Positions 7,070 to 31,295 of a stretch of 37,335 bases of DNA are shown here, in pieces; the stretch's first letter is position 1; each line of letters starts with the position of its first letter. Made by a program: the position numbers and the translations under genes. Under the pieces are notes generated by a model. That model had not been told where the DNA came from. It was given only the letters and a program-made list of their open reading frames with translations, and searched no databases. This DNA is from Folioceros fuciformis (Eukaryota), in NCBI GenBank assembly GCA_049999805.1, contig JBNGIO010006013.1, positions 1-37,335 on the forward strand, given 5' to 3'.

Positions 7070-8418
7070 TCACGGTCGATCGTTACAACTGCAAGAACCA
7101 GCTGCAAATCGATGGACACGGTATCCATCTCTAACAGCAATGTCTCTCTTCTCAACCCTTGACATGATCTGCGTGGCACCGTGGCAGTCACCACACACGC
7201 GTAGATTTTTCGTTACCAGCAGAGGTGTGGCACCGGGAGTGTTCAAGAGACCATACGCCAGAGCTAGTCTCTCAGCATGCCCGCAAAGCGCCTCTTCCTT
7301 TTCCTTCTCAGACAGTGACTTCAACACCAACTTCGTTTGTGGAACATGGCCCCCTTCCTCCTTTACACGGACGTTCATGCTCTCTGCTTCGAACGAAATT
7401 AAAGCCCGTCGTGCATCTTCCAGTTCCCAACGTTTTACATACATGTCCACCAGTCAGGTGCCAAGAAATAAATCAGGAGCAATGCCACTGTGCAAGTGCA
7501 CTTTCCTGCCAAACTCCAAGTCGGTTGAAAATGCGCAAGCTTGAAGAGCAGCTGCAAAAACGAGCGAATCTGCCTCCACCCCTGAGGTACGCATTTCAAG
7601 GTACAGTTGCACGGCATTACTAGGCTTCCCATGCTTAGCACATGCGGAGATAAAGGAAGACCACATGAAGGCATCTGGTTTTCCTACCCTGGTGAACACA
7701 TCCATGGCCTCTTGTAACCGACCTTCGCGTGCATACATGCGAAGCATATGGTTCCCCAAATATGTATCTGACTCGTACCCAAGATTGACCGTGAGATCAT
7801 GAACTTGACGCAGCACAGCCAAAGCCCTCTTAGCTGCAGACAGTTTGAGCACAGTACACAGCACACTGAGGAACAGCCTGTCTGCGCCAAGGATTTGACA
7901 GTGCCTCAGTCAGTTTCCTTTGGTGACTTCAATGGCTCACGGTTATGGTAGTTACTACAACCATTTCTGATTCTGCGGACCTGACGGGATGACGACAGCG
8001 TAACTTGGCGGGAGATGTACCATGACCCATCTGCATATCCAGAGCAATCAGCTGCTCGCCCACTCAAACTGGATTGGAAAAGTTGTTCAGCCAGAGGACC
8101 TCGCCGGAGCCCTCACGCCGGAAGTCAGGCGAACGGGAGCTCTTCGTATCTCTCCTGTTGTCCCACCACATGGTAGGCTCCACAAAAAATTGTTTCCACA
8201 AGAGCTCCTGTTCCTGGCGACGACCATCTAGAAAGCTGCTCCCCAGCCACAGCACTTCTCGGAAGTGCTGAAGGCCTTGCACTATCGTAGATCAAGCGTT
8301 CATTGTTCGCCAGAAATTTACTCCCTGAGGTGAGACGAACAGGAAATCTTTGGAGATTCCCTGTACACCCATCCATTGGATGGGTCCAGAACAGATCCGG
8401 TTGCCATGATGCAGCCAT
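7070..8418 (-). pseudogene. Pseudogenised, internally deleted paralog of the PDF-PPR-DYW:KP gene at 10931-13324
   Basis: Starts MAASWQPD (cf. MATIWQPD) and retains WKQFFVEPTMWWDNRRDTKSSRSPDFRREGSGEVLWL. It has frameshifts and in-frame TGA stops (approx. 8064 and 7454). The L-S-P-L-S motifs are joined directly to the distal DYW:KP part (HAERLA, CGDCH, ending CSCNDRP*). Confidence 0.9.
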
Positions 8419-9139: not shown

Positions 9140-10190
9140 TGTCTCCAGGATCCTTTGAGTGGTTTTTTAGAGCTTTTTATTCTTGTAGTTGTTGTGGTTA
9201 GGGCTAAGGTTCCCAATTAAATCTCACAAGTTTGGTGCATAGTAGGCTACTAGCTTTGGAAAAGCTACATGAAGGGTGCACTTTATGGCTATGAGGGAGA
9301 TGCTTTAAGACCGGATTAGCCATATTATTGCTATTCAACTTCGTGAACGCTTCCATGTACATCTTGCACTCCACTAATTTGGGCTTGCAATCCTAAGTGA
9401 GTGCGAATCTTACAACCCTCGATATTGAGGCCGCCCTCAAGTCACATCCTTATTAGGTGGCTTTATAAGTTGATATTGAGAATGATTTCAACACTAGAGG
9501 CTGTACAAGTTGATATTGAGAATGATTTCAACACTACTAGAGGCTGTACAAGTTGATATTGAGAATGATTTCAACACTACTATAGGCTGTACAAGTTGAT
9601 ATTGAGAATGATTTCAACACTACTATAGGCNNNNNNNNNNNNNNNNNNNNNNNNNNNNNNNNNNNNNNNNNNNNNNNNNNNNNNNNNNNNNNNNNNNNNN
9701 NNNNNNNNNNNNNNNNNNNNNNNNNNNNNNACTAGAGGCTGTACAAGTTGATATTGAGAATGATTTCAACACTACTAGAGGCTGTACAAGTTGACATTGA
9801 GAATGATTTCAACACTACTAGAGGCTGTACAAGTTGATATTGAGAATGATTTCAACACTAGAGGCTGTACAAGTTGATATTGAGAATGATTTCAACACTA
9901 TTTCTAAAGTCACCATCTTCTTGGAGGTAAGGAGCACATGTACCAATTGGCTTGTCTCATTCCATTTGTTCACTCTTTGTATGGCTTGCTACCTAAGCTT
10001 TATTACCAACAAAACGTGGTTATCGAGGGGGTCTCAATTTTTTTATTCAACAACAAGGCACGGGAATCTACTAAGGGGTGCTCTTTTTGCAATGACACAT
10101 GTTCTAGCTTTATATTCTACTGCCTTAGCATATTCGGAATGAGGAATGCATTTTTCTATATATGGCCGATGACACCCATTTGAGACATAA
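9140..10190 (+). mobile_element. Degenerate non-LTR retrotransposon reverse transcriptase remnant, CRE-clade-like
   Basis: Frameshifted and stop-interrupted peptides occur in RT order: SRLLALEK, H*FGLAILSECE (cf. HQFGVA..GGCE), VDIENDFNTISK (cf. D..NAFN.I.R), TRHGNLLRGALFA (cf. GxRQGDPLGxxLF), YMADDTHL (YxDD). Boundaries are approximate. Confidence 0.7.
9467..9900. repeat. Minisatellite, 43/40-bp unit gaggctgtacaagttgatattgagaatgatttcaacact(act)a, interrupted by a 100-N gap at 9631-9730
   Basis: About 4 copies are visible on each side of the gap. The true copy number is unknown. Confidence 0.95.
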
Positions 10191-10464
10191 TCAAAGCATC
10201 CTTTAATCTTTTCTCCTTAAAGCTCTTTAAGATGGGATTGAGGATAAGTTGTCTTAGTGTAGGCCTACACTTAGATAGCTTAAGGGCCAAACCCTCTTCA
10301 AGCATTACTCACTCTCTTCAATATTAAGAGGGGGGACATCTGTCTCCTCATAGGGTCACTAAGTCAATTCTTAATTCCAATAAGACTACTCAGCACCCTT
10401 GACAAGATTGTCACTAAGTCCCTACCACACAAGTTGGATTATCACTAGGTCCCGACCACACAAG

Positions 10465-10567
10465 TTGGTGCCATTACTTCATGGCTGCTTGGTGCCATTA
10501 CTTCATGGCTGCTTGGTGCCATTACTTCATGGCTGCTTGGTGCCATTACTTCATGGCTGCTTGGTGC
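10465..10567. repeat. Perfect tandem repeat, 24-bp unit ttggtgccattacttcatggctgc x4 plus partial copy
   Basis: Units start at 10465, 10489, 10513 and 10537, with a partial copy at 10561. A ~31-bp imperfect duplication precedes it (10412-10468). Confidence 0.95.
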
Positions 10568-10930
10568 TGTAGCATGGGATTTCACTTAAAACAGGTGCAT
10601 TTTTATAACCTTTGCTGATCTAAGAATCTAAGTGGTGGATCCACAAGGACCAAATTCCGGCAGTATTCATCTCTTGGACTTTCAGAAGGCCTATGGAGGT
10701 GCATGCCGCTATATGGCTTTGGCTTATTTTCCACTGACTTCTGTCAATGGAACATAATTATAACTACTTCAGCCGCGGGATAACAATTATAACTGAGGAT
10801 GCTGGTCCAAGGTTGCAGAGAAAGGCGACCCTTTGCTCGCTTTGCCATAGGCCAATCCATCTCCAAAGGTCAAATGGCGGCAGTCTTCCAGCCTACACAC
10901 ATGAAGGGAGGGGCTAATTCTTCGTCACTG

Positions 10931-13324
10931 TCATGGTCGACCTTTACAACTGCAAAAACCAGCAGCAAATCGATGTACACGGTAGCCATCCTTTACGACA
11001 ATGTCTCTCTTCTCAAGCCTTGACATGATCTCCGTAGAACTGTGACAGTCACTGCACATGCGTAGATTCTTTGTTACCACCAGAGGGGTGCCACTCGGAG
11101 TGTTCAAAAGACCAAACGCCAGGGCTAGCTTCTCAGCATGCCCGCATAGCATATCTTCCTTTCCCTTCTCCGACAGGGGCTTCCACACCAATTTTGTGTG
11201 GGGTACGTGGCCTCCTTCTTCCGTCAGACGTGCATTCGTGCTCTCTACCTTCAGCGCAAGATCATCTCTTCTGTCTCCCACCAAAAATGTATGTACCTGC
11301 GTCTTCACCTCAATGGTAGCCAGTGCAGGTTTCTTACTAGCTCTTGCTTCCATTCTCTGTGCTTCAATCCTCTCCACGTCGGTCCACCTACCTGCATCTG
11401 CATAGGTACTGGCCATGAGCACATAGGCAGACGCTCGCTGGGGGTCCAGTTTAACAAGGCTTTCAAAACACCGAATCGCCCTCTCTATATCCCCGTGACT
11501 TTTGCACGCATTCAGCAAAGACGTCAATCCCACAACATTACGTCGCCCCTCACATGATAAGAGCACGCTCTCCGCCTCATCCAAATGGCCGGCACGTCCT
11601 AGAAGGTCAACCACGCAATTATGATGCTCAGTCGTAGGTTTCAAGCCATGCTGCTCAGCCATGGAATGGAAGTGCTTAAGACCCTCAAGCACCAGCCCCC
11701 CGTGGCTGCATGCTACTAAAAGGGAAGTAAAAGTAGCATTATCAGGCTGAATACCCGCAGCTAACATCTCCTCAAAACAAGCTAGTGCTTTGTGAACTTC
11801 GTCGCAAGTACCATACCCAGATATCAGGGCATTCCATGTCACCACATCTTTAATGCGCAAGCTGTCAAAAACCCGGCGTGCATCTTCCAATGCGCCACAT
11901 TTTGCATACATGTCCACCAGGCAGGTGCCCACCAGTGGCTGGTGTAGCATCCGTCTTTCCACAATCTGCGAGTGCAGCTGCCTGCCTCTCTGTAAGGCAC
12001 CAGTGCTTGCACAAGCCTTCAGAAGGCAAGAAAAGGTAACATGGTTAGCCAAAATCAGGCCCTCCTGTTCCATCTGTTCATACAGTAGAAGTGCCTCCTG
12101 ACCAAGCCCTTGCTGTGTATATCCAGCAATCAAGGCATTCCATGTCACCACATTCTTTGAGGCCAAGCTGTCAAATACCTGGCGTGCAGCGTCCAGTTCG
12201 CCACATTTTGCATAACCACCTATAAGGGCCGTCCATGTCACTACATCCTTCGTAAGCAAGCTGTCAAAGGCCCCGCGTGCATGTTCCAGGTGGCCACATT
12301 TTGCATACATGTCCACCAGACAGTTTCCAACAAACAGGTTGGGAGGAATGCCACTGTGCAATACGTCAACGTGAACTTTCCTCCCAGATTCCAAGTCGCC
12401 TGCAAATGCACAAGCTTGAAGGGCAGCTACAAAGACGTGATTATCTGCCTTCACTCCTGAGCTACACATCTCATGATATAATTGTATGGCCTCCTTCGGT
12501 TTCCCATGTTTAGTATGGGCGGAGATGATGGAGCCCCACATGAAGGCATCCGGGTTGCCTACCCTAGTGAACACGTCCTTCGCCTCTTGTAGCCTACCTC
12601 CACACACATACATGCGCAGGAGATGGTTCCCCAAGTATGCATCCGAATCGTACCCGAGTTTAACAGTGAGGTCATGAACTCTCCGCCCTACAGCCAGATT
12701 CTTCTTGTCTCCACAGAGTTTCAGCACGTTATAAAACAAAGAGTGGGAGATAACGGAGTCTGTCTGCACCAAGGATTCCAGGGCTCCAACGGCCTCCGAA
12801 AGTTTCTTCTGCTGACATAACGTGCTCACAGTTGCAGCCGTTACGACGCCCATTTCCGATCCCATATCCCTGTCAGGTTGATGCATGTCCGGAGAGCTCG
12901 ACTTGCAAGGGCAGACATCATGATCCACCTGCATATCCAAAGCAGCCAGCTGCTCATCCACCCAAGCTGGCTTGAACATGCTGCTTAACCATAGGACCTC
13001 GCCGGACCCCTTGCGCCGAAAGTCAGGCGAACGGGAGCTCTTCTTATCTTGTCTGTTGTCCCACCACATGGTAGGCTCCAGAAAAAATCGCTGCCACAAG
13101 TGCTCCTGCTCCTGACGACCACCATCGCTGGAAAATCTGTCCCCACCCACGCAATTTGTGAGAAGTGGAAGTGCTGGGCTCCTTACACTTGTGAGCCTGG
13201 AGACTTGGCTGTTCGCCGAGGCTTGAACCCCTAAAATCAGGTGAGCAGGAGATCCTCGTACAATCCCTGGACGCACACCAATTTGTTCGGTCCACGACGG
13301 GTCCGGCTGCCAGATTGTGGCCAT
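10931..13324 (-). CDS. Intronless PLS-class PPR protein with E1/E2 and DYW:KP (GRP-type) domain, candidate organellar U-to-C editing factor, carrying an N-terminal OSB-type PDF motif
   Basis: 797-aa ORF with about 13 PPR motifs (P-L-S-P-L-S-SS-P-L-S-P2-L2-S2), then E1 and E2. KKPALA replaces the PG box, followed by HAEKLA, CSDCH and terminal CSCKGRP. Residues 76-130 read LWQRFFLEPTMWWDNRQDKKSSRSPDFRRKGSGEVLWL..PAWVDEQL. Confidence 0.95.
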   Translation of the reverse strand: MATIWQPDPSWTEQIGVRPGIVRGSPAHLILGVQASANSQVSRLTSVRSPALPLLTNCVGGDRFSSDGGRQEQEHLWQRFFLEPTMWWDNRQDKKSSRSPDFRRKGSGEVLWLSSMFKPAWVDEQLAALDMQVDHDVCPCKSSSPDMHQPDRDMGSEMGVVTAATVSTLCQQKKLSEAVGALESLVQTDSVISHSLFYNVLKLCGDKKNLAVGRRVHDLTVKLGYDSDAYLGNHLLRMYVCGGRLQEAKDVFTRVGNPDAFMWGSIISAHTKHGKPKEAIQLYHEMCSSGVKADNHVFVAALQACAFAGDLESGRKVHVDVLHSGIPPNLFVGNCLVDMYAKCGHLEHARGAFDSLLTKDVVTWTALIGGYAKCGELDAARQVFDSLASKNVVTWNALIAGYTQQGLGQEALLLYEQMEQEGLILANHVTFSCLLKACASTGALQRGRQLHSQIVERRMLHQPLVGTCLVDMYAKCGALEDARRVFDSLRIKDVVTWNALISGYGTCDEVHKALACFEEMLAAGIQPDNATFTSLLVACSHGGLVLEGLKHFHSMAEQHGLKPTTEHHNCVVDLLGRAGHLDEAESVLLSCEGRRNVVGLTSLLNACKSHGDIERAIRCFESLVKLDPQRASAYVLMASTYADAGRWTDVERIEAQRMEARASKKPALATIEVKTQVHTFLVGDRRDDLALKVESTNARLTEEGGHVPHTKLVWKPLSEKGKEDMLCGHAEKLALAFGLLNTPSGTPLVVTKNLRMCSDCHSSTEIMSRLEKRDIVVKDGYRVHRFAAGFCSCKGRP

Positions 13325-13720
13325 CGTTCAGGGCCCGCCGGCGGAGGATGAGGCGCACGACAAACCATGGCAGGACGCCTAGGTATTGCGCATGACCGCA
13401 CTACCTTTGAACGGCAGGCAGTGAAGTGACGAGTTGACACGCGGTCTACCATGGCTGCCAAAGAGATTCTCATGCCTTCGGACCAAGTATTAAGCAAATA
13501 ATAGACATCATGCCCCTGGCCAATCTTAGCCGCTCTTCCCCCTGAGTTTGCGGTGGTGCTCTGCTTTATCCCTTCCTGATGGCATTCCGCTGTCAAGATG
13601 CTCTGCACTCACGTCTGATGCTCTCAGACATTGCGCACGGAACGACATTGCGATTCAAAATGGTCATCTCGTGCTCGCGAGCCTCTGTCCATTTGCGGTT
13701 TCCCCACGCCAGGGCGTCGG

Positions 13721-15124: not shown

Positions 15125-18100
15125 CTAGAACGTGTTCCCTAATGCTAATTGGAGCCCCATTCCGTGCGCATGCTGCAGGTGCTTTGCCTTGCTCAATGCT
15201 TTTGTGAGGACGTCCGCCGTCATCAGGTTCGTTGGACAGTACACCACCTGCACCAGTCTGTTTGCCACCTGCTCCCTAATAAAATGATGCTGCACCTCCA
15301 GGTGTTTGGTTCTAGCATAGAAGCGCGGGTTCTCTGAGAGTGCTATGGCACTTTGGTTGTCGCAACTCAAGCGCATTGACAGCTGCTGTGGAGAATCGAG
15401 CTCAGCCAAAGCTCCGACTGCCCAGACTGCCTCCTTGCAAGCCTCTGTCAAGGATTTGTACTCTGCCTCAGTTAAGGACAGAGCCACTGTTGGCTGGCAC
15501 TTGCTGCTCCAGGAGATGGCACCTCCGGCCAGAAGAAACACAAAACTTGAGATGCTACGGCAACTGTCCTGGTCCCTGGCCCAATCAGCATCGCTGAAGG
15601 CCGTGAGAGTAAGTGCCCCAGCGGAACCTCCTTCGTAGAGCAGTCCCCAATCCTCCGTTGCCTTGATGTATCTGAATAGCCGCCTCATTGCTTGCCAGTG
15701 AGCCATTGCTGGATTCGCGAGAAACTGTGAGAGCATGCCCACGGCAAATGCAAGATCTAGACGGCTTTCCAACATCAGGTACATGACGCTCCCACTGAGT
15801 GAAGCATATGGGAACTCTGCCATCAGGCGCGCCTCTTCAGCTGTCAACTCCGGCTCTCCAACTTGTGCTCTATATTTCACATTCTGTTCACGTGGTGTAG
15901 AGATAGGTTTGCAGCTCTGCATCTGGAACCTTGCCAGGATTTGACGAATATACTTTGCCTGATGCAAAAAGATCCTTCGTCTTCGTCTGTCACGACTGAT
16001 CTGCATGCCTAGACAGAATGCCAGAGGGCCTGCATCTGTCATTTTGAACTCTGATCTCAATTGACGTTTCAGCTCCTCTATCATTGCTACAGTGTTTGAC
16101 ATTATTATTATGTCATCGACATAAATGGCTAGAGCTAAAAAATTCCTTCTTCTTGCCCTTCATCGTGTAAACGTTAGAGTCAGCATGCGTAGGGGTGTAG
16201 CCATGTGATAGGAGGAAGTGGTGAATCCTAGAGAACCATGCTCGAGGACTTTGTTTCAGTCCGTATAGGGTCTTCCTCAGCTTGCAGACTTTCTGGTGAG
16301 TGCCCTCTTCTGCTGTCAGGCCAGGAGGACACTCCATGAAGATTTCCTCATTTAGCTCTCCATATAAAAATGCTGTAGTTACATCTAGCTATTCCAGTTC
16401 GTAGTCATGAATGGTGGATAGGGCCAAGAACAGTCTTAGAGTGCTCATTTTGACGACTGGACTGAAGGTGTCTGTATAGTCAACTCCTTGAACCTGAGAG
16501 TAGCCTTTTGCTACTACACGACCCTTATATCTAGCTATGCTGCCATCAGCATTCAACTTTATTTTAAATACCCATTTACTCCCAACAGCCTTCCTACCTA
16601 GAGGAAGTTCAGCTAGCTGCCAGGTTTGGTTCTCCTTAAGTGATGCTAGTTCGGATGCAATAGCTTGCTTCCAATGCTTTGCATCCGGGCATGATAGAGC
16701 CTCCTCATAGGTTTGAGGTTCAAACAACTCTGTAGCAGCTGCTAGACAGTATGTTAGATTTGACTTGGAATGTTTTACATCCTTGGGGTGCCTCCAGTCA
16801 TGGACCTTGTATAGGTCTATCTCGCCTGCGGTTGTACGAACATGGTGCTCCCTTGGTGGAACTGGAACACTAGCAGGCTTCTTCTTACGCTGCTGTGTGC
16901 CCGAGGTGGGCACATGCTGATAATTGGAAGGGGTAGTGAACAGCTCCCCAGGTGAGACCACTCCTTCTATGTCAAAGTCACCAAACACAATTGACTCAGT
17001 TTGCTCGCTGCTGACTGGCCGTGTTGGCTGTTGTATTGCTGGAGTTGCAGGTGCTTGCTGAGGGATCGGTGCTGCAACTGGTGCCCCAGCTTGTGGTGCA
17101 GGCACTGCAGTTGTAGGGCCTGCAGGCTTGAACAGTCCTTCTTCCATTTCATCATCTGACTTGGAAATCAAATCAAATGTAGCTGCTCCCACTGAGTCAT
17201 GTGACTCAACACCTTCTAAAAATATGACATCCCTGGAATGTGTAACAACCCTGGTACGTCGGTCGATTACTTTGTACCCTTTGATGCCATTCGTAAATCC
17301 GATGAATATGCAGGAGATTGATTTGGGCTCAAACTTCTTCCTAAGGGTCTTGTGAATGTGGACGTACACAGGTGACCCGAAAACCCGCATGTGTGAGACA
17401 TCAGGCTTGGTTCCTGTCCAAACCTCGTATGGAGTCTTGCCCTCTACAGTTGAGTGCTCAATGCGGTTCTGTATGTATGTGGCATACGCCACTGCTTCCA
17501 CCCAATAGCTTTTTGGTAAGTTTGCATATGCTAACATGCTAGATGCTGAGGTTTCCAATGCTTTGTTCTTATTTTTTGTGACTCCATTTTGCTGAGGAGT
17601 CCTAGCGTTGGTAAGCTGTCTAGCTATGCCATGCTGGCTGCAGAATGCTTGGAATTGACCTGAACTGTACTCGCATCCGTTATCCGTACGCAGGGCCTTC
17701 AAGGTCTGACCAGTCTGCTTCTCTGCCCAAGCCTTGTATTCAGTGAAGCATTCTAGGGTTGAGGACTTGAGCCTCATGTAGTATACCACAGTGAATCGAG
17801 AAAAGTCATCAATAAAGGTGATGTAATAGGCCTTGCCTCCTAGCGAAATAGGTAGAGGCCCACAAAGATCACTGTGTACCAGCTCGAGCACCCTGGTTGC
17901 TCTCTCAGCTGGTTCAGATGGGAAAGATGCACGGTGGTGCTTCCCAATCACGCACGCTTCACATACTCCGAAGTCAGACAAGATGTCTAACTGTAATCCA
18001 CGCACCAGGTTATTTTTATGCATTCTTACAAGTTTCTGGAAGTTGAGGTGTCCCAGTCTTAAATGCCACAAGTATGTTAGCGAGGGCTTAACCAAATGAG

Positions 18101-19440
18101 CTGATGATGTGGTAGAGTTTGCCTGGTCCTTCTTCACATCAAGGTGGTAAAGATCATCAGCCCATAGTCCTCCAGTGGCCATTAGCTTTCCCTCGGCAGT
18201 CTCCACAACACATTTGCGACCACCAAAACAGATGAAACAACCAGATTCATCGATTTTGCTCGCAGACACAAGATTCTTCGCCAGGCCTGGTACGTACAAG
18301 ACTTCAGGAATTTCCAGATGCTGATCTGGATCAAGATCCAGCTGAATGGTACCTTGTCCTTCGATTTTGTGAGTTGTATCATCTCCTAAGCATACGTATA
18401 TGTCCCCTTGAATTGGCTGCAGATTAGTGAAGTAGGAGTGATGGGGGCTCATGTGTTGGGAGGCCCCGGAATCTATATACCATGCATGTTCAGCCTTCAA
18501 TGCATAGCAGGTGACCACTAGTGCTGAAACACCCTTGTCATGTGCAGCTTCTTGTGATTCATGCTGGACACATGCTGTAAATGCCTTGGAGTACTTCTTC
18601 ATCGTTGCAGCCAGGTTGCCTCCTATGTGGCTGCTTCCTGACTCGTTCGCCAATCTTTTTCTGCAGACCTCCCATGTGCGGTTTGGGATTCCAAAGTAGC
18701 CACATGGTGGCTTAGCTCTGGCTGAATTTAATGAGGTTGGCCGAGTTGGGAAGCCTCGGCCACGGCCTCTCCCTCTAAAAGTTGGCTTGCCTCTGCCTCT
18801 GCCTCTTGCTGTACCAAATTTGTTGGTGAAGAGGGCTTTGTCCCTTGCATCTATGGAAGATGTGGCCATCTTCCTACGATTCTCCTCGGTAAGCATCATG
18901 GAGATTACACGGTTAACCGTGATAGAAGCTACGTTTTGAAGGGACTGGACAACATTTGTCCAACTTTTGGGCAACTGAGACAAGAGAATGACTGCCATCA
19001 CCTCCTCGTCAAGTTTAAAACCAAGTGCTGTGAACTTGGTCTACCAGCTTTTCCAAGTAAGTACAAATTCTGCAACATTATCCATTTCCGCCATCCTTAA
19101 TCCCACAAAAGATTTTAGAATGTGGGTTTTGAGCATAAGATCAACTGCATCATAGAGTTCTAACAGTTGCTTCCACAGTGCTGCTGCAGATGTTATAGAG
19201 CCCATCAAAGTGGCGATGTGAGAGCTCTTGACGCTCATGGTGAGCAAAGTTCTGGCTTGCTGATTAGCAGCCTTCCAGTCTGCAATTTCATCGGTCGACG
19301 CTGTGGCTGGCGGTTCAGGTTTAACAACTTCTGCTCCTACATACTCCCCAAGGTTCCTAGATTTTAATAATTCTTCCATTCTGAATTTCCATTGACTGAA
19401 GTTCTGACCATCAAACTTGTCCTCTTTGGCCAGGGCGACA
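15125..19440 (-). pseudogene. Copia gag-pol polyprotein, disrupted
   Basis: Motifs: gag FDGQNFSQWKFRME; protease WYIDSGAS; integrase LWHLRLGH/CEAC/HSDLCGP/RTDNG; RT YGLKQSPRAW and YVDD; RNase H FSDADWA/EAEY/CDNQSA. TAG stops at 19041 and 16389, and a frameshift in the T-run near 16140. Confidence 0.93.
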
Positions 19441-27067: not shown

Positions 27068-30000
27068 CTACTTGCCACTTATCTTCCAGCCGTGCTGAGC
27101 AGCAACACGTTCAAATGCCATCTTCGCCTCTGCAGCCGAGTAGGACTGACCTATTGCAGCCCTGTCAATCTGACCTCCCCCTTCAATGAGGGAATTAACA
27201 ATCTGCACTAATACCATCTCAAAAGAAAAAGCAGGATTCCATCCACTCTCTGTAAGGAGCTCCATGCAGATACTTCCACCAACTGTTACGTGTCCTGTGT
27301 GGAAAGCAAATCTGGGATAAACTACACGAATGAAAGGCGGTTGAAATGGAAACCGACCTGGAAAGGTTACTTCGAGCAAAACATGAGCCTCCTCAACCTC
27401 CCTGCGTCCACCCCAATCACAGAGGTCCTCGTGTAAAGGATAGGCCTTGAAGAGTTGTTTGCCCAGACGGACATGCCAAGTATAAAAATTAGACTCGTCA
27501 GGAATCACTACGGAGATGTTACTCAGAAAAGTCGCCGCTGCACCTCCAGATGAAGACGCCTTTAACTTCTCTTTGTGAATCTCTTTGAGGATGTTCCTGT
27601 GTTCTTTAATGATGGCTTGAGTTGCCATTACAGTTCCCTCGCTTGCTCGCCACTTTTTCTGGTCTTCCACACTTTTTGCAAGCTGTGCTCTTCCGTTGAG
27701 CTTGTTGAGTGAATTTTCATCTGTAAGGCAAATGTCTTCCTCCAAAATCTTTAGGGCAGTTGAACGTTGCTGTTCCAGCTGTGACATGTGCTTTTTACGA
27801 TCAGCCAGCTTGAGATCTTGCAAATGAACAAGCAAGTCCACATCTGCCACTCCACGTGCTCCGTGTGATAGGAGCAGGTTGAGCTTACTTGGAGCTACCG
27901 AAGTGATTCCTGTAATTCCTGGGATACCGATTGTTTCACTCAGTAAGGTGGTGCCTGTAATCTTGTGTCCCATCATCGTCTTCCTGTCGCCAGGTCTGCA
28001 GACGAGCAAGTATCGTACTATTACGTTATCTTGCAATGTTGGCGGCACAACATGTATGTTCTCCGAGCATTGTGAAGAGCTCCCAATCACCACTTCACAA
28101 ATAGCCATCACACAGAAAGGCCACTCCAAGGTTCCCCCAAATTTCAATAGTTGAGTTCTATTTTCGAACTTATTAGCCATCGAATAAGAAAAGGAGAACT
28201 CGAAGGTATCAGCTAGATAAATACCCTGTCCAAATGAATCACCAGATGACATGTAGACTGTCCTGCTCATAGATCTGAGCCCGTTCCTCAGTATCGAATA
28301 CCAGTTACAGAGGCTGCTCCCATGAAAGGCAAAGAAAGATCCCCCAGCCGTCTGTCGAAGCTTCTGAAAAGTTTCTTCCTTCTCTGGGGAGTCATGAACC
28401 ACGACAAATTGGTGAGTCACCACGTCACGATCAAAAGGAAGCATTTCAGACTTCTCTAAGCTACGAATGGATACCCTGTTCGTTGACAAAATGAATCTCA
28501 GCAATTCATAGGACACATTGAGATCCTTGAACATAAGATTCTTCACGTACTTGCCATATGAGATATGGTCTGTACATTGAGAATATGCAAGCGTCTGTCT
28601 CAAAGGGACATGCGCTTCATACGTAGAATATGCAAGCTTCCGCCTCAAAGAGACTTCATCTCTGCACTCCCTCAAAGTGTCAAGAGGTGGGAGTGATACA
28701 ATGATTTGAGCCAATAACTGAAGGTTTTTGTTGGGAGTGGAGAACTGAAGGTTTTTGTTGGGAGTGAGAGTGAACAACTGAAGGTTATTGTTTGGAGTCC
28801 ATTGCTGAAATGAACCCCATGGACGCCATGTCTGAGTAGCTGGTCCTGCATGTTTCCTGTCTCCGTCACTTTGTCGCGTCTTTAAATTAGCATCCATGTC
28901 GGTGAACCAACCAGCACGTCCCCTTAGCCCGTTACCGTCTAAGAAGGAGTTTGGGAATGGCTCAAACACATCACGCCCTGAGACAGCAGCAGCATGTGCT
29001 AGGGCCACTTCCAGCTCGACCACTTGTGGGGATCCCAAAATCTCATGAAATATTGCCGAACCTTGTCCAAGTTCTTCAAATTTGTAGAGGCAAAACTCCT
29101 TTGAACAAGTTCGAAGTCTCCACATGGATGAAGGAAGTGAACACCAGCAGACGGGGCACCAGGTAGGCAGTGCCCTCAACTGGGATCCAATGAAATAGAG
29201 AAGACCAATGAAAGGGTTGGCCATGTCTGCACAGAAATCTAGACACTTGATCATTTGCTCGTTTTGCAGTGGCTCGCCTCTAGCCCCAGTACTTGTTCTG
29301 TAGGCACGATGAGATAGAAAGACTGTCACCAGCTCAGGCAGCAGCACGTCTGTTGCATATCCTTGTGCAGCCTCTGAACCACCCGTATCGTCCTTGTAAA
29401 GCTTGGAGAACTCCTTGTCAACGTAGGAGAAGGGCTTGGTATCGCTTTCACGTTTGTCGGTGGTCCACTGAGGCAACTGTCTGACCAGCACCTGTTGTGC
29501 TAGGAGAGGCTGGGACCGGCTCCGAATGAGATCACAATCAACTTGGAGTAAGCGCCTGTCGAACTGTAGTGAAATATTCAAGGGATCATCAAACGACAGT
29601 CCTAGAGCAGCAGCTACAGCTGCGTCATTAAATAATCCAGGCACCTGCAGCCGCAGATGCACGCTTTCTGCATGAGCGGACATGGAAACCACACAGAACT
29701 TGAGCATGCCCTCATCCATTTCGAATGGAGGCTGGGTTCCTGCTTGGCCTGGACTAGGCCCGTGTGAACCTGCGCGAACATCATCACATATCCGTCGGGC
29801 TTCCCGTGCTGCAGGTGCATAACCTCCACGGTTGGTGTCCAATTCCTCACACTCGAGGATGGGTAAAAGGTCCACAGAGGGGCCCTTCACGGCAAAGTCA
29901 TGTGCATCGTCGTCCTCACCTGGCGCACACCCGCTATCCTCTGAAACATAATCATCGCTACTATAGTCACTCCCAGTTTCACTTCCAAATTGGGATCCAC

Positions 30001-30424
30001 TGCTGGCCCCCTGGATGTCCCTCAACCCTTCCTCGACACTCGGTCTCGGGCTCGGTCTCTTGCCTGATGAGATCACCATCATTTTGAGAAACATATCCAG
30101 CACCTGATGAACAGCCCCTGCCGGGTCCGACCGACACGGAATTCGCTCCAATTTCTCGTTCAGCTGCGTCACGAATCCTTCCTCAGCAGAATCATCAGGG
30201 CTCATAGCGACGAAGCTGCCTTCCCCTTCGTCTCGTCCATCGGAGAAGTGAGACGGCAGAATCAAATGAAACAGCATATCCGCGACGAAGAAGATCAAAG
30301 CCGATTCCGTGGCCTCGGAAAGCCTGAAACCATGCGACGCTGCCTCCTTTGCATGTTGACGCACCCACGACGACCAGACGGCAAAATTGCCTTGCGCTGT
30401 CCCCAGGACTCCACTACCAACCAT
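27068..30424 (-). CDS. Intronless PARP6/8/16-like mono-ADP-ribosyltransferase fused to a C-terminal UBE2Q-like ubiquitin-conjugating (UBC) domain, ~1118 aa from first ATG
   Basis: Cys cluster CPVC..TCSKEFC (PARP6/8-like). ART motifs AFHGSSLCNWYSILRNGL, GQGIYLA, MAICEVV and ENIHVV. UBC reads LLEVTFPGRFPFQPPFIRVVYP..GHVTVGGSICMELLTESGWNPAFS..EAKMAFERVAAQHGW. First ATG is at 30424; the ORF track starts at GTG 30616. Confidence 0.9.
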   Translation of the reverse strand: MVGSGVLGTAQGNFAVWSSWVRQHAKEAASHGFRLSEATESALIFFVADMLFHLILPSHFSDGRDEGEGSFVAMSPDDSAEEGFVTQLNEKLERIPCRSDPAGAVHQVLDMFLKMMVISSGKRPSPRPSVEEGLRDIQGASSGSQFGSETGSDYSSDDYVSEDSGCAPGEDDDAHDFAVKGPSVDLLPILECEELDTNRGGYAPAAREARRICDDVRAGSHGPSPGQAGTQPPFEMDEGMLKFCVVSMSAHAESVHLRLQVPGLFNDAAVAAALGLSFDDPLNISLQFDRRLLQVDCDLIRSRSQPLLAQQVLVRQLPQWTTDKRESDTKPFSYVDKEFSKLYKDDTGGSEAAQGYATDVLLPELVTVFLSHRAYRTSTGARGEPLQNEQMIKCLDFCADMANPFIGLLYFIGSQLRALPTWCPVCWCSLPSSMWRLRTCSKEFCLYKFEELGQGSAIFHEILGSPQVVELEVALAHAAAVSGRDVFEPFPNSFLDGNGLRGRAGWFTDMDANLKTRQSDGDRKHAGPATQTWRPWGSFQQWTPNNNLQLFTLTPNKNLQFSTPNKNLQLLAQIIVSLPPLDTLRECRDEVSLRRKLAYSTYEAHVPLRQTLAYSQCTDHISYGKYVKNLMFKDLNVSYELLRFILSTNRVSIRSLEKSEMLPFDRDVVTHQFVVVHDSPEKEETFQKLRQTAGGSFFAFHGSSLCNWYSILRNGLRSMSRTVYMSSGDSFGQGIYLADTFEFSFSYSMANKFENRTQLLKFGGTLEWPFCVMAICEVVIGSSSQCSENIHVVPPTLQDNVIVRYLLVCRPGDRKTMMGHKITGTTLLSETIGIPGITGITSVAPSKLNLLLSHGARGVADVDLLVHLQDLKLADRKKHMSQLEQQRSTALKILEEDICLTDENSLNKLNGRAQLAKSVEDQKKWRASEGTVMATQAIIKEHRNILKEIHKEKLKASSSGGAAATFLSNISVVIPDESNFYTWHVRLGKQLFKAYPLHEDLCDWGGRREVEEAHVLLEVTFPGRFPFQPPFIRVVYPRFAFHTGHVTVGGSICMELLTESGWNPAFSFEMVLVQIVNSLIEGGGQIDRAAIGQSYSAAEAKMAFERVAAQHGWKISGK

Positions 30425-31295
30425 AGCGACTGACTCGCCCTGCTGGCTGCGCGCAACGCTGCGCAATCCAGCTCTCCTCTTGATTCTGTTTGCCCTCTCC
30501 TCTCGATCAAATTCCTTCACCTGGACACCTACCTCGGGGTATTCCCTCCAGCTGCAGCTGCAGAGCTGGAGATTGACCGTCCGACCAGGCCCCCGAATGG
30601 CAAGCACGCTGCTCACAAACGCGCGCGTCCGACAGCCAATCGAACAAATTCCGCTACATGCGAGTCAGCAGAGTATGCAGATACCACCAAATAGGGAAGA
30701 AAAAAAGAAAGGAAGGAAAGAACGGAGGAGTAATCCAAAGCAACAAGTGCACGACGCTAGATTAGTTCTCCAAATCTGGAAAAGTGAACACGCACCTAGA
30801 GAGGGCAGCGTCAGCGTCCACCCCAGAGTAGAGAAGCGGAGACGTCGTGTCGGACGAGCTTTCAGACGACTTAAGACAATTTTTGTGGTTAAGAATATGG
30901 AGGGTCCGTTAGAAATGTTATCAACGGCTCCACAAAACAGCTGCACACGACAGCTCAAAATGGGAAAACACTCAGCTCTCATCTCCAGAACATGAAAATA
31001 GTGATACATAACTAGCCGTCAGGACCACACCATACCCTCTCCTGCATGAAGGCATACGTGTACCGCGCACACTTGTACTGTACATACCTGCTTACTATGC
31101 AATACAAAAACGAGAGATCGTTGGAAGGAGGAGAGGAGGCGACAGAGCAGCCAGCTGTCTGCGGGTGGATGCAGCCAAGTCACAAGTCGGTGCTGGTCAC
31201 GATCGCCATGCAATGTCGATGAAGCTGACAAAAGATGCGTGAAGCGTCCCCACGCTCCGACACTGTGAACCAGCATCCCACTAGACTGACCCGGA

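Follow-up and report, generated by a model that had tools for sequence, protein, structure and literature searches.

The locus described here raises the question of why a protein built like an organelle RNA-editing factor carries, near its N-terminus, a motif of single-stranded DNA (ssDNA)-binding proteins. The locus lies in a 37,335-nt stretch of Folioceros fuciformis DNA (assembly GCA_049999805.1, contig JBNGIO010006013.1, positions 1 to 37,335 of the forward strand), which was analysed as a whole and is called the window below. On its (-) strand a single uninterrupted reading frame of 797 aa at 10931-13324 runs from the ATG through a PDF motif and a PPR array to a DYW domain without leaving its frame. 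A sequence-only reading of the window had placed an OSB-type PDF motif at residues 76-130 of this protein, corresponding to 12935-13099, and both the coordinates and the quoted letters agree exactly with the sequence. The sequence identifies the segment of residues 75-130 as a genuine PDF module and a homologue of the ~50-aa motif found in the plant organellar ssDNA-binding OSB proteins. The parts of the gene are as follows:

10931..13324, (-) strand: intact open reading frame including the stop codon, with disordered N-terminus, PDF motif, linker, PLS PPR array, E motif and DYW:KP domain of the GRP type (open reading frame list, Pfam, AlphaFold2)
13130..13324, (-) strand: residues 1-65, N-terminal stretch modelled with low confidence (predicted local distance difference test, pLDDT, below 50), presumed to be an organelle-targeting presequence
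12935..13102, (-) strand: PDF motif, residues 75-130, HLWQRFFLEPTMWWDNRQDKKSSRSPDFRRKGSGEVLWLSSMFKPAWVDEQLAALD (OSB-only hidden Markov model, conserved columns, AlphaFold2)
12839..12925, (-) strand: linker, residues 134-162, from the PDF module to the first PPR helix (pLDDT below 50 at 135-157; first repeat helix at 163)
11348..12838, (-) strand: PLS-type PPR array and E motif, residues 163-659 (Pfam PPR, PPR_2, PPR_1 and E_motif; modelled helix pairs)
10934..11347, (-) strand: DYW deaminase-fold domain of the KP/GRP type, residues 660-797 (Pfam DYW_deaminase at 705-795; sequence reading)

Identity of the PDF motif

We searched residues 60-145 with phmmer against 1.84 billion cluster representatives and obtained 624 proteins at E<=1e-3, of which 180 reached E<=1e-10 and 16 reached E<=1e-30. 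The best 150 of these 624 matches were listed, and every one of them contained between 1 and 13 PDF units when scanned with a profile built from the same matches. A Populus 'protein OSB1, mitochondrial-like' with two PDF copies (E 1e-24) and a Chenopodium 'protein OSB3, chloroplastic/mitochondrial-like' (E 1.5e-53) were among the matches. The Pfam family SSB (PF00436) was present in 47 of the 136 top matches that were scanned, that is, the best 150 minus 9 proteins scanned before and 5 fragments shorter than 130 aa. The PDF motif itself was covered by no Pfam family, neither in the scan of residues 1-160 nor in those of the 136 matches. A sequence search of the PDB with residues 60-145 gave two matches at E ~1, both to chlorophyll a-b binding proteins, and these are not meaningful.

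In order to avoid circularity we restricted the hidden Markov model to OSB-like proteins. The PDF motif of the Populus OSB1-like protein was used as the seed, and the model was built from 166 motif copies in 77 proteins that share the Populus OB region. It matched residues 75-130 over its entire length (model positions 1-55 of 55) with 71.0 bits and an E value of 2.8e-15 at Z=1.84e9. Comparison with a model of OSB PDF motifs had been proposed in the sequence-only reading as a check, and its outcome is thus a significant full-length match. When the PDF segment was shuffled 2000 times, 1830 of the shuffled sequences scored and the maximum was 10.6 bits. A chance or low-complexity likeness was considered and rejected on the number of phmmer matches, the score of the OSB-only model and the shuffle maximum.

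The individual positions of the motif were compared as well. Thirteen columns are conserved in at least 85% of 369 PDF copies from proteins outside the PPR family, and all 13 are identical in the 797-aa protein (W77, P84, W87, D89, R91, K94, P100, D101, F102, L111, W112, P119 and W121). The Pro-Asp-Phe signature of the motif corresponds to P100-D101-F102. Each of the 13 columns was also kept in 92-100% of 112 PPR-linked copies, the same as in the OSB copies. The score of the OSB-only model, the complete set of conserved columns and the OSB-named phmmer matches together bear out the claim of an OSB-type PDF motif.

The protein that carries the motif

Pfam assigned the 797-aa protein to PPR (1.4e-61) and PPR_2 (1.2e-60), with an E_motif at residues 610-672 (1.7e-11) and a DYW_deaminase domain at residues 705-795 (3.2e-31). 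The protein has the tandem PPRs, the E motif and the DYW domain with HxE...CxxC by which PLS-class PPR-E-DYW proteins are recognised; in the sequence, HAE is found at residues 729-731 and CSDCH at residues 757-761. PDF segment and PLS PPR-E-DYW part are therefore joined in one reading frame, as had been claimed. Residues 1-160 matched no Pfam family even at E<=10, and the SSB (OB-fold) family was absent both from this segment and from the whole protein. Without an SSB-like OB fold the protein shares the PDF motif, yet it is not an OSB. Among its first 70 residues, 13 are Ser/Thr, 6 are basic and 4 acidic.

In the DYW domain, KKPALATIEV replaces the PG box, the active site reads HAE (GHAEKLA) and not HSE, the segment GDRRDD is without HP and the C-terminus is ...CSCKGRP. 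We compared these marks by eye with the criteria given in the accessible part of PMC9478123. According to that text, domains of the DYW:KP kind differ from their DYW:PG counterparts at the PG box, at the active site and by their terminal triplet, the Ala within HAE is peculiar to KP domains, and xHP is missing from most of them. The same source names two hornwort KP variants, DRH and GRP, after their final three residues and describes U-to-C editing by designer KP proteins. The KP box, the HAE, the absence of HP and the terminal GRP thus point to a GRP-type DYW:KP factor, in agreement with the type proposed by the sequence-only reading. They also make a hornwort the probable source. We take the 797-aa protein to be a nuclear-encoded organelle RNA-editing factor of the PLS-class PPR-E-DYW:KP architecture, GRP type.

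Distribution and relationship of PDF-PPR proteins

All counts of the fusion given here come from biased samples, namely best-scoring lists with isoforms included, and do not amount to a census. Using blastp and Pfam we detected a PPR array downstream of an N-terminal PDF motif in 7 of the best 150 of the 624 phmmer matches. The Sphagnum compactum fusion is a 564-aa PPR-E-DYW protein ending in CSCRDYW. Two proteins each came from Diphasiastrum complanatum and Adiantum capillus-veneris, one from Pteridium aquilinum (P0101, an open reading frame with a source name resembling a transcriptome assembly), and one was a Logan contig protein with three PDF copies. Starting from the full-length protein, we found an N-terminal PDF motif in 1-3 copies in 34 of the best 120 listed homologues. 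Most of these 34 were from Diphasiastrum; the others included all three proteins of the liverwort Calypogeia fissa, one of Sphagnum jensenii and Adiantum with a partial copy. The motif was found in none of the 20 seed-plant proteins on the same list, which were assigned by name (6 Cryptomeria, 13 'Gb_' taken as Ginkgo, and 1 Taxus). With a Diphasiastrum PDF query against proteins of 617-1966 aa, all 63 matches were Diphasiastrum proteins with Pfam PPR, and we counted 59 distinct locus tags among them. A search of near-length homologues with the PDF region of the 797-aa protein itself gave 31 candidates, none of which scored, and the word index of this search is insensitive to a divergent copy.

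We then pooled 341 sequences. A near-complete PDF motif was present in 245, PDF and PPR together in 91 and, according to blastp, a DYW domain in addition in 39 of these. Co-occurrence of PDF, PPR and DYW, which the sequence-only reading had suggested looking for, is therefore documented by 39 cases in a collection of sequences rather than in full proteomes. The position of the PDF motif was constant in the PDF-PPR proteins, always between the N-terminus and the first repeat. At the C-terminus, 36 of the 39 PDF-PPR-DYW proteins end in DYW or DSW, and the other three are the 797-aa protein (GRP) and the Logan proteins P0180 (GRP; 54% identical to the 797-aa protein) and P0281 (DRH). Two implications of the sequence-only reading are not borne out by these numbers: with 91 cases among 341 sequences the fusion is more common than implied and not peculiar to this gene, and with 36 canonical termini out of 39 it has no particular link to the KP type. 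The sequences instead place the gene in an old, large PPR subfamily of non-seed land plants with 1-3 PDF modules before the first repeat.

In a weakly resolved tree of 290 motif copies (61 columns) the 22 PPR-linked rows needed 6 label changes, compared to a mean of 21.4 for shuffled labels, and none of 500 shuffles was as low. We then used a subset of 52 rows (22 PPR-linked and 30 others), obtained by filtering at <50% identity and <=4 gaps, whereby 238 rows were dropped. All 22 PPR-linked rows fell into one group of 28 rows with a Shimodaira-Hasegawa approximate likelihood ratio (SH-aLRT) value of 81, and the remaining six rows of the group were 5 OSB copies and one copy of another kind. The rows closest to the copy of the 797-aa protein were P0006, P0180, P0281 and a 162-aa fragment. 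For the same subset, a single clade of the PPR-linked copies was not rejected by the approximately unbiased (AU) test (p 0.247). The motif sequences are thus compatible with, rather than proof of, one ancient PDF-PPR fusion.

Several PDF proteins of other kinds were encountered in the searches. The dinoflagellate Effrenium voratum has a 730-aa protein (P0007) with 9 tandem PDF copies, as well as five named relatives; the motif is thus not confined to green plants, contrary to what is stated in the accessible text of PMC4166229. The proteins P0002, P0003, P0011 and P0012 carry 9-13 tandem copies as opposed to the 1-3 described for OSBs, with 13 in P0003 of Kingdonia uniflora. In P0043 of Coptis chinensis three PDF copies stand ahead of a kinesin motor domain, and P0044 of Striga hermonthica, named 'Interactor of constitutive active ROPs 2', also has three. 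The latter two may reflect either true fusions or the merging of gene models.

Predicted structure

AlphaFold2 modelled residues 60-145 with a mean pLDDT of 80.7 (60-row alignment), and the 10-residue block means were 87-93 over residues 11-70 of this 86-residue model. The order of the elements is a helix, two short strands, a further bridge and a helix. In the model of the full-length protein (54-row alignment, mean pLDDT 87.0) residues 67-133 were again confident, with block means of 88-95, and were flanked by residues 1-65 and 135-157 with pLDDT below 50. Helical repeats follow at 163-659 and then the DYW domain. The PDF motif is thus predicted to be a small, independently folding module between two disordered stretches. 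A Foldseek search of the PDF model against pdb gave no match at E<=0.001, and in a VIA-align comparison with 48,161 chains the highest Z was 4.3, with no chain at 5 or above; failure to find a relative of the fold does not establish a new fold. The matches of residues 60-260 in the ESM Atlas were generic PPR clusters only (0.88-0.90) and hence uninformative.

The neighbouring pseudogene

A second, damaged copy of the gene was found in the window:

7073..8418, (-) strand: degraded paralogue (pseudogene) (tblastn of the 797-aa protein on the whole 37,335-nt window)

The start, PDF block, first PPRs and DYW domain are preserved in the pseudogene. Its coding sequence is broken by 3 in-frame stops, the frame changes at 2 places, and residues ~357-690 are gone. 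The start MA.SWQPD..WT is common to both copies. The PDF block lies at ~8037-8204 and reads LWKQFFVEPTMWWDNRRDTKSSRSPDFRREGSGEVLWL; the sequence-only reading was right that the block is kept, though a stop codon stands where the Trp of the P.WV element should be. Over residues 76-111 the two copies are identical at 30 of 36 positions, compared to 35% identity over the preceding 68 residues. The third or fourth PPR of the pseudogene is joined almost directly to the DYW domain with an internal loss of ~330 codons, and the DYW domain ends in CSCNDRP, that is, in DRP and not in GRP.

Transcript evidence

We found no run on record as RNA that contains the stretch. In run X1, for which the kind of library is guessed, contigs with 0 differences covered 10538-11042, 11488-11735, 12136-12970 (tiled), 13059-13469 and 13488-13702, and listed pieces were absent from 9500-10500 and beyond 13842. 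The ATG is spanned, along with the motif's first 41 bases, by one contig; a second contig leads from the motif's end into the linker and PPR region. None of the listed contigs bridges 12971-13058 exactly, and a joint that would remove the motif was not seen in this run.

The bin with the core of the PDF motif (13007-13173) was matched by many different contigs at least 90% alike in all four runs, which represent four organisms. At position 13050 each run has the variant letter in 40-81 different contigs, likewise at least 90% alike. The PDF-coding sequence thus seems to be multi-copy in those four organisms, although the contigs are not countable as genes.

Proposed function and alternative explanations

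Invariant aromatic and basic residues are typical of base stacking and phosphate contacts, and when a PPR array binds RNA its N-terminal repeats lie toward the 5' side. In the mature protein, the PDF module would fold on its own into a helix, a short hairpin and a helix with many invariant Trp/Phe and basic residues, and a flexible linker of ~25-30 residues would tether it to the N-terminal end of the PPR array. It would then face the 5' side of the bound RNA, within reach of RNA 5' of the footprint or of ssDNA close by. As the invariant aromatic and basic positions are the same as in the OSBs and the predicted independent fold sits on a flexible tether, we infer that the module is an accessory that binds single-stranded nucleic acids without sequence specificity. 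A grip on nucleoid ssDNA, as for the PDF motif in OSB1/OSB2, or on the adjacent nascent transcript would keep the factor where the RNA emerges. Such anchoring would raise the effective affinity for the target, with specificity given by the PPR array and the U-to-C chemistry by the DYW:KP domain. We consider it probable that the PDF module of this PPR-DYW:KP factor serves as an accessory of this kind and anchors the factor at nucleoid ssDNA or at the nascent transcript. The biochemical background is provided by the OSB proteins: the accessible part of PMC6963530 describes the PDF motif of AtOSB1 as sufficient for ssDNA binding, and that of PMC4166229 reports that OSB1 and OSB2 prefer ssDNA over double-stranded DNA or RNA.

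Several points weigh against this anchoring. In view of the OSBs' preference for ssDNA over RNA, a role on RNA cannot be taken for granted, and at the same time nothing connects PPR editing factors to ssDNA. We found no support for the idea that the DYW domain itself acts on ssDNA. As far as we found, the literature holds no binding, localisation or editing data for any PDF-PPR protein. Since no solved structure is clearly related to the predicted fold, the structure lends nucleic-acid binding no independent support. The run with exact contigs of the gene is only guessed to be RNA. Furthermore, blastp detected no DYW domain in 52 of the 91 PDF-PPR proteins; some of these are truncated models, but with many PDF-PPR proteins lacking DYW the module is not tied to editing as such.

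The main rival explanation assigns the module to RNA alone: in the PPR context the PDF motif would clamp single-stranded RNA immediately 5' of the array's footprint and thereby raise the affinity, as a cis counterpart of the trans-acting MORF/RIP proteins. A module that, as modelled, is tethered flexibly to the array's N-terminal end would suit such a clamp, and 1-3 PDF copies per protein are what is expected of an affinity add-on. In our sample PDF-PPR proteins came only from non-seed plants (0 of 20 seed-plant proteins against 34 of 120 listed homologues overall), and MORF genes are reported from seed plants only in the accessible part of PMC13386178. However, this complementary distribution comes from a small, biased sample and the best 150 of 624 matches, OSB1 and OSB2 favour ssDNA over RNA, and OSB and PPR-linked copies do not differ in the 13 conserved columns, with no sign of retuning. 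We regard a clamp acting on RNA only as rather unlikely. The anchoring reading itself can be extended to the whole group. PDF-PPR proteins would then be an ancient land-plant class of organelle editing and RNA-processing factors, lost in seed plants, that the motif anchors to nucleoid ssDNA (transcription bubbles, R-loops, replication or recombination intermediates) for co-transcriptional editing including U-to-C, and the cis anchor would have been abandoned when the trans-acting MORF arose in seed plants. In this full form we find the scenario distinctly unlikely.

Two further explanations give the motif a different role or none. As a module for protein-protein contact or oligomerisation it would recruit the factor to OSB or other PDF-bearing proteins, which would suit the tandem arrays of up to 13 copies, the fusion to unrelated proteins such as a kinesin and the report of AtOSB2 as a tetramer in the accessible text of PMC6963530. 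The sole biochemical activity reported there for the motif is nevertheless ssDNA binding, its invariant residues are mostly aromatic and basic, and we hold a pure contact module to be improbable. The motif could also lie outside the working protein, being removed with the presequence, located upstream of the real start or left over from a decaying fusion. It directly follows a disordered, presequence-like stretch, Met86, Met117 and Met134 are possible starts in principle, and the search turned up no run registered as RNA. The match of the OSB-only model, however, begins 11 residues upstream of Met86, so that a downstream start would cut the motif. All 13 columns are kept here and 92-100% in the 112 PPR-linked copies from several plant lineages, and this retention argues against a cleaved or untranslated segment; in the pseudogene, too, the block is far better preserved than the residues before it. 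We consider a non-working motif very improbable indeed.

Other genes in the window

A retrotransposon of the Ty1/copia type with two open reading frames lies at 15125-19001 on the (-) strand, 1.8 kb upstream of the PPR gene, and has Pfam gag, integrase, RVT_2 and related domains. In an open reading frame of 1182 aa at 27068-30616, also on the (-) strand, Pfam recognises the catalytic domain of PARP (7.7e-13) as well as a ubiquitin-conjugating enzyme domain (4.3e-08).

Comparison with known systems

The searchable literature contained no description of PDF combined with PPR, in line with the sequence-only reading, which knew of no functional description; the original OSB paper, the papers defining DYW:KP and supplements were outside this search, and prior mention is possible. 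The extra domains listed for Physcomitrium PPR proteins are RRM (PPR4), SMR (PPR-SMR), NYN (PRORP), LAGLIDADG (OTP51), CBS and SAP, and PDF is not listed (PMC9459714). The accessible part of a 2026 survey of domain fusions in editing factors names PPR, MORF, RRM and RanBP2 fusions only (PMC13386178). As the PDF motif is without a Pfam model, domain surveys of PPR proteins would miss it, which is a likely reason for the silence in print. The PDF-PPR architecture is apparently an undescribed but widespread subfamily of non-seed-plant PPR proteins and not a singular oddity.

Dozens of editing-type PPR proteins per lycophyte genome carry a module for which the one reported activity is ssDNA binding, and the module also occurs in members of the subfamily from liverworts, mosses, ferns and a probable hornwort. 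If ssDNA binding is kept in this context, it becomes directly testable whether organelle RNA editing is coupled in space to the nucleoid. For plants without MORF the module is a candidate helper of editing. KP-type (U-to-C) factors from nature serve as a source for RNA base editors, and the designs omit this N-terminal affinity module, which could matter for activity.

The systems already described that come close include the hornwort DYW:KP factors of the GRP subgroup (Gerke 2020 and Gutmann 2020, as cited in PMC9478123), along with the designer proteins KP2 and KP3. They share the PLS array, the E motif and the KP/HAE/no HP/GRP marks with the 797-aa protein; the accessible text describes PLS and C-terminal domains and leaves an N-terminal PDF motif unmentioned. 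The OSB proteins share the ~55-residue PDF motif itself, with the W, P, W.D.R, K, PDF, LW and P.W positions invariant in both. They differ in having an OB-fold/SSB domain followed by 1-3 C-terminal PDF copies, whereas the 797-aa protein has one N-terminal PDF motif and no OB fold. Its remainder is an RNA-editing factor, and its putative ssDNA binding is argued from likeness to the OSBs. PPR proteins with accessory domains follow the same principle of a helical-repeat RNA reader combined with a small extra domain, and PPR4 with its N-terminal RRM likewise begins with a nucleic-acid-binding module. In work attributed to Yan et al. 2017, MORF/RIP proteins reportedly raise the RNA affinity of PLS PPR proteins. 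The PDF module may do the same job as these helpers of seed plants, an analogy that is speculation. The MORF proteins differ in that they are trans-acting, have no sequence relationship to the PDF module and, according to the accessible part of PMC13386178, occur in seed plants only, whereas the PDF module is part of the editing factor itself.

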